Origin: an uncultured candidate division Zixibacteria bacterium
GTDB taxonomy: Bacteria > Zixibacteria > MSB-5A5 > UBA10806 > 4484-95
Assembly: GCA_963668625.2 (NCBI GenBank)
Contig: CAXXKA010000001.1
Coordinates: 612,582 to 676,581, forward strand
Direction: 5' to 3'
Length of the DNA: 64,000 bases
In this document: positions 8,989 through 13,335 of the stretch, piece after piece
Position numbering within the stretch: position 1 is the first letter of the stretch
Layout of the letters: each line of letters starts with the position of its first letter
Made by a program: the position numbers and the translations under genes
The notes under the pieces: generated by a model
What the model was told of the DNA's origin: nothing
Database searches by the model: none
Seen by the model: only the letters and a program-made list of their open reading frames with translations

Positions 8989-9180
8989 AAACCCTCCATA
9001 GCATAGTTTTAGATTTTCAATCAGGCCAATATAATAAAGTCCGACGATTATATGCAACCAAAATCCGGTATTTAATCCGATATGAAAATCATTGATATTT
9101 AAGGGGATGAGAGGTTATAATGGATTAAGGTTACTGTCGGCTTAAACGACATGATTATACTGAAAGCAAAGAGGTTAAGT

Positions 9181-9957
9181 ATGAATACCGGAAGTATAAT
9201 ATCAAATTCTATTAAAATAATGATGTTATCGGTCATGATAGCGGCTTGCTGCTGTGGCCCGAATATATCATCGGAAAACTACTCTGAAAGCAAAAGCAAA
9301 GCTATCAGGCTGGTTGATGATGGGAGATGCGATAAAGCCGTTAAGTTATGCCGCAAGTTGTTGGAGATAAACGAGAAGGATGCCGAAATATACCGTCTGG
9401 CAGCAGCTTGTTTCGCAAAAATAAACCAGCCCGATAGCGCGGTTTTTTACTATCAGGGAGCTATAGTATTCAATCCCTCGGATCGCCAGGCTTATGAACG
9501 TATAGCCGATATTTATTACGATAAAACCGACTATCACACCGCTATGACCTGGTATGATAAAGCATTGCAGATTAGCTATATCAGCCCCGAAAGCTATGTC
9601 AGGTTAGCGAAAATACATCAGAACTGGAGCGAATATGCTTTTGCCGGAAGATATTACGGTTATGCCCTGGCGGCCGATCCTGACAATGTTGAAGCGCTTT
9701 ATGGCCTCGGCACGATACAACTTCAAACCGGTGACACCACGGCGGCAATTAGCTCTTTGAGCAAAGCGGCGGAATCGGGTAAACATGCCGGCGCCGCCTA
9801 TAAGCTGGGGGTTATTAATCAACAGATGAAAGACTACAGTAAGGCTATCGGCTGGCTGGAGAAATGTATCGAGTTCAGCGATGACCAATCGTTGAAAGAT
9901 AAAGCCTACCAGTTCAAGATGGAGATCGTGATGCGGATGAGGGACGGGCAGCAGTAA
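9181..9957 (+). CDS. TPR-repeat protein, probable lipoprotein (start uncertain, 9151-9222)
   Basis: Hydrophobic N-terminus ending AAC; several TPR helical pairs. Confidence 0.75.
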   Translation: MNTGSIISNSIKIMMLSVMIAACCCGPNISSENYSESKSKAIRLVDDGRCDKAVKLCRKLLEINEKDAEIYRLAAACFAKINQPDSAVFYYQGAIVFNPSDRQAYERIADIYYDKTDYHTAMTWYDKALQISYISPESYVRLAKIHQNWSEYAFAGRYYGYALAADPDNVEALYGLGTIQLQTGDTTAAISSLSKAAESGKHAGAAYKLGVINQQMKDYSKAIGWLEKCIEFSDDQSLKDKAYQFKMEIVMRMRDGQQ

Positions 9958-10332
9958 GCGGAAATGATCGTTGCTTAACAAAATATCTATTTTAATCCTG
10001 AAGGTCTAAGTCACCTGTCATTGGCTTGAAAATACTGATTCAGAAGCTAAACGTATTCTATAAACCTTGTTTTGATATAGTCATGGCGATAAAATCAAAT
10101 CGAAACGGAGTTTCTTGAATGCCGGCATACCGAACGGAGCGATTGTTGAAACAGCTTTTCATGAGTCGCTGGGCGGACGAAGTCTTTTGTTTATCCTTTC
10201 CCGACGATATACTGCATGTATGCAGCAGGAAGAAAGTAACTATGTTATCAAAAGCTTGAGCCTCAGTCATTCGGATTGTATTGTTATTTTGACAAACATT
10301 CAACAATCAACACGAACAAACAGGAGGCTCAA

Positions 10333-11391
10333 ATGCCATGTTACAACAAAATCGAGCGTGAAGCCAACACTATTTACGTTGGTATTGACGTTCATAAGCG
10401 GAGTTGGCATGTAACAATGCGAACAACTGAGCAAGAGTTATGGAAAGGCAGTATTGCAGCTGATTGGGAAGTATTGAAAAAAGTATTGGGGCGTTATTCC
10501 GATTGTGACATTTCGGTAGTTTACGAAGCCGGTTTTAGTGGTTTCTGGTTATATGACAAACTGGTAGCCTGGGGAGCGTCATGTATAGTGACTCCGCCGA
10601 GTTTGATTCCTTCTGAATACGGCAATCGGGTCAAAACTGATCGCCTCGACAGTGCCAAGCTTGCTTTACTACTTTCCCGTAGTATGCTCAAGGCAGTATG
10701 GGTACCTGATGTCGAAGCGCGTGGTCATCGCCAGGTATTGCGTCGCCGTCGCCAGTTGGTCAGCGACCGGGTCCGTATTCAATGCCGTATCAAGAGTGAG
10801 TTAGCCTGTTTCGGTCTATCTCTGCCGACAATTAGCGGCAAGTGGACGGAGACATTCGAACAGCATTTATGGCAGTTGCGTTTTAGTGATCGCTGGCAGA
10901 CAGAGAGTTTTCAGAGGTTACTGACACAGTATCGGCTGGTGAGTGAATTGATTACTCAACAGACACGGTTATTGAAAGAATTGTCAAAACTGGATCGTTA
11001 TCGGGAAGCGGTTGAGCGTCTACGTAGTGTTCCGGGCATCGGCTTGTTAACGGCGATGGAACTATTATTGGAGTTAGGGGACTTCAGCCGATTTAGTCGA
11101 GGAAGCCAATTGGCCGCCTACGTGGGCTTGACTCCAAGCCAATATTCCTCCGGTGACAAGGTTCGACTAGGACGAATCACCAGGATCGGCAAACCGCAGT
11201 TACGGTCGAATCTGATCGAAGCCTCCTGGATTTTGATCAGGAAGGATCCGGCCCAGGCTCAGCGTTATCAACAGCTCAAGTGGCGGTGTGGTTCCAAACG
11301 AGCCATTGTGGCCAGTGCCCGCCGTCTACTGTTAATCGTACGGCGTCTGATGCTTGACCATCAGAGCTATCGAATCCAAACCGCAGCATAA
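10333..11391 (+). CDS. IS110-family DEDD recombinase/transposase
   Basis: VGIDVHK, VYEAG, KTDRLD (RuvC-like DEDD), SVPGIG and GLTPSQYSSG (catalytic Ser); SD AGGAGG before ATG 10333. Confidence 0.96.
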   Translation: MPCYNKIEREANTIYVGIDVHKRSWHVTMRTTEQELWKGSIAADWEVLKKVLGRYSDCDISVVYEAGFSGFWLYDKLVAWGASCIVTPPSLIPSEYGNRVKTDRLDSAKLALLLSRSMLKAVWVPDVEARGHRQVLRRRRQLVSDRVRIQCRIKSELACFGLSLPTISGKWTETFEQHLWQLRFSDRWQTESFQRLLTQYRLVSELITQQTRLLKELSKLDRYREAVERLRSVPGIGLLTAMELLLELGDFSRFSRGSQLAAYVGLTPSQYSSGDKVRLGRITRIGKPQLRSNLIEASWILIRKDPAQAQRYQQLKWRCGSKRAIVASARRLLLIVRRLMLDHQSYRIQTAA

Positions 11392-11420
11392 AAAAGAGAT
11401 AATTAGTTTACAATATCTGA

Positions 11421-11565
11421 GTTTGGAGAATGGCGAAGGAATCCTTGTGGCTTAACAACAGACCGCGCAGGAAAGGGTGTTATCTCCCCTGGTAATAATC
11501 TCGGATTGATTAATTGTGGCTGTGTTTGAGGGCCAGACCACGAATAGCAGGGTGACTATTATCGG
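11421..11565 (+). ncRNA. Predicted bridge/seek RNA of the IS110 element (target- and donor-binding loops)
   Basis: Two repeated modules TTGTGGCT-x-CAGACC(G/A)CG-[8 nt ending AG]-GGTG, each closed by an outer stem; guides match the reconstructed target and donor junctions. Confidence 0.75.
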
Positions 11566-11767
11566 CAATGTCTAACAGTGGCAGCATGTTGTAGTTTAAA
11601 CATGGGTATTCTGCGTTTTATTAAGAAAAGGAGAAATCGATATAACAATACTAACCGAACAATATCACTTGACATGATACATAGCAGGATTCCTACCACC
11701 TCAGCGAAATCGAAACGGAGTTTCTTAATACTGGCCTTACCAGGCGGAGTATTTTAACGAGATTAAC

Positions 11768-11797
11768 ATCATGCCGGGCTGTTACACCCGGCATGAT
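11768..11797. terminator. Hairpin terminator after the S8 protease gene
   Basis: Perfect 11-bp stem ATCATGCCGGG/CCCGGCATGAT. Confidence 0.65.
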
Positions 11798-11808
11798 TAT
11801 TAGATATG

Positions 11809-13335
11809 CTACTGAATGGTATAAGAATCGCTTGTCTCGTGGTTGGAGGCGGAATTGTAATACCAGCCGTCTTTGGTGACATCGGTAACAGTAGCCGTGA
11901 ATGACATCCCGCGCGATGCGCCGGAAATCCCGAAAGTAACCGTACCGCTAGCGTTTGTATATCCGCTGAAATAGTAATTGGAACCGCCGTGGTGGTATAA
12001 TGTCATATCTACATAGGCGTTACTGACCGGGGTGGAATGATCCTCAGTGTGAATATTAACGTAAATATACAAAATGTAGTACCATCCCCAGCGTTGCTGG
12101 CTGAACGATATAGAGTTGACATGCATCGTATCGGCGCCGGCGCCACCGCCGCCGTAATCATCACCGTTGGTTGTGCCGAGCGTAGCGTTTTCGGCATCCA
12201 CCAGGCCGTACCCCTGCTGGGTAGCGGGCAGGCTGATATCCTCGGCGGTGTTATGCAGCAGTGTTCTGATTTGTACATTGGTATAGCCTGAATGAGCCTC
12301 CCAGGCCAGCGCGGCCGAACCGGCTACCATCGGGCAGGCCATGGAGGTGCCGCTTAAGGTAGCGTAGGTGTTTCCGGCATAGGTAGAGTAGATACTCGAT
12401 CCGGGAGCAATTAGCTCGATTTCATTGCCGTAATCGGAGTAGTCAGCTATATCATCGGATGAGGTCGAGGCCGAAATGGCCATCACCGAGGTTAAGGCGG
12501 CAGGGTAATCGACAGCTGAACCGTAGCCGTTTCCGGCGGCAGCCACCAGGAGTATGCCCTCATCATAGCAATCCTCCATCGCCACATCCTCAGCATATGA
12601 ATAGCCGCCCCCATAGCTCATGGAGATAACTTTGATATTGTTGTAAGGATCGGCATCGTAATGCGTATCGATACACCAGTCGGCTGCCTCGAGAATATAG
12701 TTCAGGTAAGGATCACTATAGCCTACGCGTAAAGCCCAGAGATCAGCCTCGGGCGCGACACCGACAACACCGATAGCGTTGTCATCCGCGCCGATAATAC
12801 CGGCGCAATGCGTGCCGTGACCACTGGCATCATCCCAGGCAGTCGTGTCGGCGGTATAGAAATTATATCCACCGGCCCAGGTCAAATCGGGGTGATCCTG
12901 ATCGCCGCCCGAATCGATAATCGCGACATCGATACCATCCCCGGTATATGCAGAATTATCATGCACGTACTCGGCATCGATTCTATCGACTCCCCAATCC
13001 AGGGTTTGGACGTTAAAGCGACGGATCATGTTCTCTTCGACGAATTTAATCCCTGGTTTTGAGGTCAGGGTGGATACGGCATCCTGGGGAATAGAGGCGA
13101 ACACGATTGGGAAATGTTTGTATTGATGTTTTACTTTACCGTTAACCGCCGCGATAGAACTGGTAGCCCCCTTTTCCTCAATGCCGATTAAGACATTAAC
13201 TTGCCCCGGTTCGACCGCGTGCTTCATTATGTAATCATTATTGCTTTCCGTATCGGTGGGCATATCTTTCGAACAACTAAAGACCATCATGAGGACGGCC
13301 AGCCCAGCCAGTAACAATAAAAGTTTGTTTCTCAT
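11809..13335 (-). CDS. Subtilisin-like S8 serine protease lipoprotein (I9 propeptide, C-terminal beta domain)
   Basis: Lipobox VFS-C; catalytic triad IIDSG, HGTHCAG and GTSMACP. Confidence 0.95.
   Translation of the reverse strand: MRNKLLLLLAGLAVLMMVFSCSKDMPTDTESNNDYIMKHAVEPGQVNVLIGIEEKGATSSIAAVNGKVKHQYKHFPIVFASIPQDAVSTLTSKPGIKFVEENMIRRFNVQTLDWGVDRIDAEYVHDNSAYTGDGIDVAIIDSGGDQDHPDLTWAGGYNFYTADTTAWDDASGHGTHCAGIIGADDNAIGVVGVAPEADLWALRVGYSDPYLNYILEAADWCIDTHYDADPYNNIKVISMSYGGGYSYAEDVAMEDCYDEGILLVAAAGNGYGSAVDYPAALTSVMAISASTSSDDIADYSDYGNEIELIAPGSSIYSTYAGNTYATLSGTSMACPMVAGSAALAWEAHSGYTNVQIRTLLHNTAEDISLPATQQGYGLVDAENATLGTTNGDDYGGGGAGADTMHVNSISFSQQRWGWYYILYIYVNIHTEDHSTPVSNAYVDMTLYHHGGSNYYFSGYTNASGTVTFGISGASRGMSFTATVTDVTKDGWYYNSASNHETSDSYTIQ

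Follow-up and report, generated by a model that had tools for sequence, protein, structure and literature searches.

An insertion sequence of IS1111-type layout, with a predicted guide RNA, in the hairpin loop of a dispersed repeat of a Zixibacteria genome

According to PMC11187229, ISEc11 of the IS1111 family forms a circle whose abutted ends make an active promoter, and an RNA is produced from its essential 3′ non-coding region. Circle formation and a junction promoter that drives the gene are described there for other family members as well. In the seekRNAs of IS1111 elements, the top-strand match is located 5′ of the bottom-strand match (PMC11187229). ISEc11 uses a short linear target. ISPa11 lands in a multi-copy extragenic hairpin (PMC11187229), and ISPpu9 and ISPpu10 are described as inserting in repetitive extragenic palindromes. 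IS621, a member of the IS110 group, is outlined in PMC11208160 as having a DEDD/Ser recombinase, a two-loop RNA with the core in its guides and a split promoter that is assembled from the joined ends. The IS621 RNA is encoded in the left end with the left target guide first, and the core is CT. Its left guides pair with the bottom strand and its right guides with the top strand, all of them including the core (PMC11208160).

The window, a 64,000-nt stretch of a Zixibacteria contig, holds an intact insertion sequence of the RNA-guided IS110/IS1111 kind that appears from its nucleotide sequence to have been active recently (Table 1). The element has the same layout as ISEc11, with a guide RNA downstream of the gene and a top-strand match 5′ of a bottom-strand match, but its target is the hairpin loop of a repeat, and it is known from sequence alone. 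The multi-copy hairpin target resembles those of ISPa11, ISPpu9 and ISPpu10, although the host phylum, the target sequence and the repeat family differ in this comparison, which was made by description only. The element shares the recombinase type with IS621 and, as predicted, a two-loop RNA with core-containing guides and a split promoter. It departs from IS621 in that the RNA follows the gene with the opposite order of guides, the core is AG and the sub-terminal repeats have considerable length.

In all probability, the element is an active IS110-family insertion sequence with an IS1111-type layout, in which the left end is short, the inverted repeats are sub-terminal and the guide RNA follows the gene. 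If it works as ISEc11 and IS621 do, a complex of the recombinase and the RNA would excise the element as a circle in which the ends are abutted at one AG. The circle would assemble TTGACA-17-TATGTT, which would drive the recombinase gene and the downstream RNA. The RNA would then bridge the circle junction and an empty hairpin loop, and strand exchange at AG would result in insertion without further duplication.

Table 1. Coordinates of the element, its predicted parts and its flanks in the window
Feature	Coordinates	Strand	Remarks
Left part of the host ~145-bp dispersed repeat	10146..10236	+	Last part formed by the target hairpin's left arm and the core AG (10235–10236)
Insertion sequence	10237..11687	+	1,451 bp with the right-hand AG counted; delimited by five copies, unoccupied sites and relatives' ends
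Left sub-terminal inverted repeat CTATGTTATCA	10240..10250	+	Holds the −10 half TATGTT (10241–10246)
TTGAGCCTC	10256..10264	+	Pairs with GAGGCTCAA (10324–10332); covers the Shine-Dalgarno AGGAGG (10322–10327)
Second internal inverted repeat, left arm	10270..10292	+	Partner 11637–11659
Transposase gene	10333..11391	+	352 aa from the ATG 5 nt after AGGAGG; Pfam, NCBIfam and invariant catalytic residues
Predicted bridge/seek RNA with two stem-enclosed internal loops	11425..11565	+	~140 nt; comparative structure
Right target guide AAGGAAUCCUU	11436..11446	+	About 11436–11445 complementary to top strand A-AG-GATTCCT; U11446 extra
Left target guide CAGGAAAG	11468..11475	+	Top strand of the left target arm and core
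Candidate right donor guide UUAAU	11510..11514	+	5′ side of the donor loop; weak, read by eye
Left donor guide AUAGCAG	11544..11551	+	11544–11550, last 7 nt of the element with core; G11551, first flank base
Second internal inverted repeat, right arm	11637..11659	+	
TTGACA, −35 half of the junction promoter	11669..11674	+	At least 5/6 in 51/70 relatives at the same offset
Right sub-terminal inverted repeat TGATACATAG	11675..11684	+	
Host repeat, right arm (GATTCCTACCACC...) of its target hairpin	11688..11705	+	

The left junction of the element consists of GAAGAA (10229–10234), AG and TAACTATGTTATCA (10237–10250), and the right junction consists of TTGACA, TGATACATAGC (11675–11685), AG (11686–11687) and GATTCCT (11688–11694). 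An earlier note on this DNA had read both junction strings at these positions, where they are indeed found. Its interval of 10229–11694 holds for the junctions but is too wide as the extent of the element: eight bases on the left and seven on the right are flank. AG is present on both sides, and the element can be placed equally at 10235–11685 or 10237–11687. An alternative boundary at the word AGCAGGA, which is shared by 10224–10230 and 11684–11690, was rejected because the other four genomic copies lack the left-hand word.

Five full copies are found in the genome, namely the window copy and those at C6:580650 (+), C5:25761 (−), C4:59085 (+) and C8:130521 (+). They are identical over 1,451 bp except for a single SNP at position 11481, which is T in the window copy and C in the other four copies as well as in contigs of three sequencing runs. 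The variable base pairs with G11432 in the target loop's outer stem, where T gives a G-U pair and the C of the other four copies a G-C pair. The alignment of the other copies, a check proposed by the earlier note, returned the same two junctions in five of five: the left one reads ...GAAAG|TAACTATG... and the right one ...CATAGCAG|GATT.... The shared GAAAG is ambiguous between element and flank when copies of one genome are compared, and this ambiguity is settled by unoccupied paralogous sites. These sites read CAGGAA-AG-GATTCC or CAGGAA-TG-GATTCC. The element is therefore TAAC...CATAGCAG with AG on either side. All five insertions are located at ...GAA-AG | GATT..., and the unoccupied sites contain one AG, with no duplication beyond the short shared core.

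The ends are also shared by relatives with unrelated flanks, which start directly after AG with TAA (rarely TCA, CAA or TGA) followed by CTATG. This left end is found in nearly all of the loci listed (L164 has AT for AG); the left starts after AG read TAACTATG, and the right ends read CATAG-N-AG. The previously proposed AG core and boundaries are thus backed by the five copies, the unoccupied sites and the family-wide ends. The predicted empty target is matched by paralogous unoccupied hairpins of the form ...GGAA-AG-GATTCC..., one of them with GCAGCAGGAAGAAA-AGGATTCC; the empty allele of the exact locus is not among them. CTATGTTATCA and TGATACATAG form an inverted repeat of 10–11 bp with one indel, 3 and 1 nt from the core. 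This repeat around the core is longer than the 6 bp first quoted and is conserved in relatives (CTATG... / ...CATAG).

In assembled contigs of three sequencing runs, the element forms a separate contig of 1,451–1,485 bp with a word depth above that of its flanks. Neither a circle-junction contig nor an empty-site contig was present in these assemblies, which is evidence neither way on circles. A search for a close copy in 40 related genomes found none, with one 35% match in G009.

Coordinate-joined ends contain TTGACA-17-TATGTT, which matches 10 of 12 consensus positions and is the only hit by the promoter criteria, although the consensus may not be that of the host phylum. The 17-nt spacer is composed of 11 nt (11675–11685), AG and TAAC. 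A consensus scan of the integrated stretch (10100–11800) found no plus-strand promoter-like site. The circle-junction promoter of the earlier note is thereby predicted in the joined form only. Both halves are conserved: the right-end hexamer at the same offset is TTGACT in 42 instances, and of 67 left-end hexamers in relatives, 65 satisfy the −10 criterion and 63 read TATGTT or TATGAT.

A stem in the leader is formed by TTGAGCCTC and GAGGCTCAA, which are complementary at nine of nine positions (MFE −25.5 kcal/mol), and hides the ribosome-binding site. The stem is kept with compensatory changes in relatives (AAGACTC/GAGTCTT in L128, GATGTCT/AGGCATC in L136 and ATGAGC/GCTCAT in L166). With no plus-strand promoter-like site and a paired ribosome-binding site, the integrated copy should be nearly silent. 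The second internal inverted repeat spans 23 nt with 83% complementarity and is the longest inverted pair in the element. It is weaker in relatives, where 14 of 64 loci reach a score of 9 (vs 1.4% of non-cognate pairs). This repeat could be a DNA site or could mediate 5′–3′ pairing of a full-length transcript. In several relatives (L159, L164, L169–L171, L178, L181 and L186), left-end positions ~55–69 could pair with the donor loop's 3′ strand, AGACUGGCUUGGA, which may mean that the mRNA leader pairs with the guide RNA. The complementarity is weak (12/64 vs 4.9%), belongs mostly to one clade and is absent from the window element.

The transposase gene is preceded by 96 nt and followed by 296 nt of non-coding sequence. 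The region after the gene is predicted from comparative structure to encode a bridge/seek RNA with guides that match the target and the right end. In an alignment of 70 distinct RNA regions, the four-helix structure pairs 83.4% of cells, compared with 31–45% when the 3′ partners are slid. Changes on both sides are observed in 22 of 26 pairs, and none of 500 shuffles reaches any of these measures. Two helices are at 67%, which is due in part to a one-column shift of the alignment in the sub-clade of the window copy. RNAalifold, run on the tool's own alignment, predicted the target loop's outer stem and the donor loop's inner hairpin, with compensatory changes in 13 of 14 pairs. The MFE fold of the non-coding region, in which the two target guides are paired together because the target is palindromic, was rejected in favour of the comparative structure. 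A search of positions 9000–13000 against Rfam 15 gave no match up to E = 1, although Rfam may hold no model of an IS1111-type guide RNA.

The target loop and the left donor guide fit the two-loop scheme. Over 10 nt, the right target guide is the reverse complement of A-AG-GATTCCT; it is one base out of register with most relatives, and the same offset is observed in L167 and L175. Matches of GCAGGAA and GAAAGG together read CAGGAAAG, the left target guide. This guide matches the left flanks of the C5, C6 and C8 copies at eight of eight positions, that of the window copy at six and that of the C4 copy at five. The two target guides and the left donor guide each include AG. The candidate right donor guide, a weak assignment made by eye, pairs with AG-TAA at four of five positions and places A opposite the core G. 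Its counterparts in relatives (UUAC, UGAC, UUGC and UCAU), also weak and read by eye from the alignment, track TAA, TCA, CAA and TGA. The top-strand match is located 5′ of the bottom-strand match.

The guides were compared with flanks and ends in 88 loci, which consist of the window locus, seven loci from genome_contigs (52–77% protein identity) and 80 from metagenome_contigs. Loci without motif-findable ends were dropped, and 13 of the 88 lack the donor-guide motif, mostly with the contig end reached. In the left donor guide ATAG-N-AG, the variable base is that of the right end in all 67 loci with both motifs (C in 29, G in 30 and T in 8). For the right target guide, the 11 nt that follow GGCG were compared with the right flank, and an offset of 0 or 1 was permitted in cognate and non-cognate pairs alike. 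Cognate pairs have a mean of 6.48 of 8 (n = 62), compared with 3.68 for 2,910 non-cognate pairs with dissimilar flanks; with wobble pairs excluded, the means fall to 6.03 and 2.45. For the left target guide, the 8 nt that precede the outer stem were scored against the left flank, with a cognate mean of 4.51 of 6 (n = 59) vs 1.44. For each of the two target guides, none of 2,000 permutations reaches the observed sum, a count that overstates independence because the relatives are phylogenetically related. The flanks comprise 60 distinct right-flank 8-mers and 45 distinct left-flank 6-mers. Moreover, in 53 of 68 loci the donor-loop base that follows the core is identical to the base with which the right flank starts (shuffle mean 26.1, 0/2,000). 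This position resembles the handshake guides described in PMC13626964.

The host repeat is a MITE-like sequence of ~145 bp. Its terminal inverted repeats measure 12 bp (TTGTTGAAAAAG / CTTTTTCAACAA), and it has a conserved stem in its interior as well as a terminal hairpin. The consensus loop of the hairpin is CAGGAA-AG-GATTCCTG, and this loop is the insertion site. The part of the repeat left of the element matches about 60 other places in the genome (blastn), and a profile search (nhmmer) gave about 188 hits with a median length of 130 bp in the 4.3-Mb genome. Four of the five element copies are located inside this repeat. Intact copies of the repeat gave sub-threshold, chance-level rows only when compared with Rfam. 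When both strands of the near-palindrome are counted, 72 genome sites differ from the guide-predicted 16-mer by no more than two mismatches. The commonest loop variant among these sites has TG for AG (CAGGAATGGATTCCTG, 15 counts on both strands), and TG loops carry none of the five insertions. The terminal words of the repeat are also observed beside the elements of relatives in other MAGs (L039, L113, L126 and L185).

A further reading, which we consider rather doubtful, treats the element and the MITE-like repeat as a nested pair of parasites. Spread of the repeat would create landing pads, and TG loops may be immune alleles, since they are the commonest variant among the sites with at most two mismatches and yet are free of insertions. 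Two layers that do not appear in the family descriptions consulted, namely the conserved stem over the ribosome-binding site and the second internal inverted repeat, whose arms flank the junction, could together make expression dependent on the circle beyond the split promoter.

The element belongs to the IS110 family. A plus-strand ORF spans 10276–11391 in the ORF list, and the start of the transposase was read as ATG 10333. The protein matches PF01548 (DEDD_Tnp_IS110, the RuvC-like DEDD domain; 3.8e-16) and PF02371 (Transposase_20, the C-terminal domain; 2.5e-27) of Pfam as well as the NCBIfam equivalog NF033542, 'IS110 family RNA-guided transposase' (238 bits, cutoff 140). In an alignment of 28 homologues with 57–100% identity to the query, the D19, E65, D103, D106, S272 and S273 residues are invariant, and the Ser loop reads GLTPSQYSSG. 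The profile of this alignment matches the solved transposases of ISCro4 (E 7e-18) and IS621 (chain 8wt6; E 6.8e-16). In the alignment with ISCro4 chain 9t56, GvD is placed on GID, yEaG on mEAt, KTDrrD on KTDAVD and YSSG on YESG. A single-sequence search also lined up the KTDxxD and ESG motifs with the IS621 transposase. Retention of the DEDD residues as well as of the catalytic Ser, which the earlier note had claimed, is confirmed by the invariant D19, E65, D103, D106 and S273 residues and their alignment to the GID, EA, KTDxxD and ESG positions of ISCro4. The nearest relatives are found in Zixiibacteriota and Ignavibacteria MAGs.

Within the family, the IS1111 group is defined by sub-terminal inverted repeats of ~7–17 bp, a longer 3′ non-coding region and a 330–350 aa transposase of the IS1111 clade. 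The sequence displays the architectural features of the group, and we infer the circle and its promoter activity. The IS1111-type label assigned previously stands for the architecture (inverted repeats, 3′ non-coding region and guide order) and does not rest on the protein clade. The 352-aa transposase aligns with that of ISEc11 over residues 183–329 only (~35% identity), and the nearest named plasmid elements have ISSso6- and ISEc45-type transposases with 34–36% identity over 83–86% of the protein. These relationships would fit a reading in which the mechanism is the same and the formal place of the element is in the IS110 group, or in a clade of its own that has a 3′ non-coding region, instead of the IS1111 group. 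ISSso6 and ISEc45 are likewise set apart from the ISEc11/IS1111A/ISPa11 block in the matrix order of the source data of PMC11187229, and a 3′ non-coding region is described for some IS110-type elements in that paper. The supplements of two papers contain tree-order and sequence sheets only, with no explicit group label for ISSso6 or ISEc45. However, the element does have sub-terminal inverted repeats of 10–11 bp, a long right end and the guide order of the IS1111 group. ISSso6 itself, the best named plasmid match (36% identity over residues 12–315), has a 14-bp sub-terminal inverted repeat, TTTGACA just inside its right end and a 3′ non-coding region of ~270 nt, in a layout like that observed here, although its protein has 375 aa and its ends are different. 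We regard placement outside the IS1111 group as unlikely.

Other readings concern the mechanism itself. AG flanks all five copies, as would be expected if staggered cuts had produced it as an ordinary 2-bp target-site duplication and it were not the crossover core of donor and target, and one genome alone cannot separate the two. Relatives whose flanks are unrelated nevertheless have AG before the left end, the left guides for target and donor both end in AG in the RNA alignment, and the commonest unoccupied loop variant, with TG, holds no copy; an ordinary duplication is very improbable. The guides track right and left flanks that mostly differ from this hairpin, which argues against target choice by a protein that reads the hairpin, with the RNA matches as by-products of a palindromic target. 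Pairing of both guides with each other in the MFE folds and the ease of finding short self-matches, given that the target is a near-palindrome, count for such a protein, to which we assign the faintest of chances. It is extremely unlikely that the copies are fossils and the split promoter a coincidence: a single base separates the five copies, the reading frame is unbroken and relatives conserve the −35 and −10 positions, although no expression or circle was seen.

Under the preferred reading, RNA-guided recombination at an AG core, the element is a well-resolved but ordinary example of a known mechanism, which it leaves unchanged, and an additional member of the family. Beyond the earlier note, the analysis contributes the guide RNA, four further copies and the repeat that serves as the target. 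The result is a cleanly delimited natural bridge-RNA system from an uncultured lineage, with an AG core and a known multi-copy target. Its relatives, with their differing guides and flanks (62 right and 59 left), constitute a natural data set on guide reprogramming in IS1111-type elements and also inform on the handshake-like one-base position. For genome annotation, the ends of the five copies are fixed, and breaks in short-read assemblies are explained.

A solo right-end fragment is located at C6:578611–578689, ~2 kb upstream of the C6 copy, as a 79-bp match with 97% identity. The fragment is preceded by an intact target-like hairpin, GGGAAAGGATTCCC, and followed by a right target arm. In the window, AAATCGAAACGGAGTTTCTT... 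is observed on both sides of the repeat with its element (10097–10117 and 11706–11725). It is part of a further small family of repeats, for which there are weak hits at C1:363206, C5:108116 and C4:194347.
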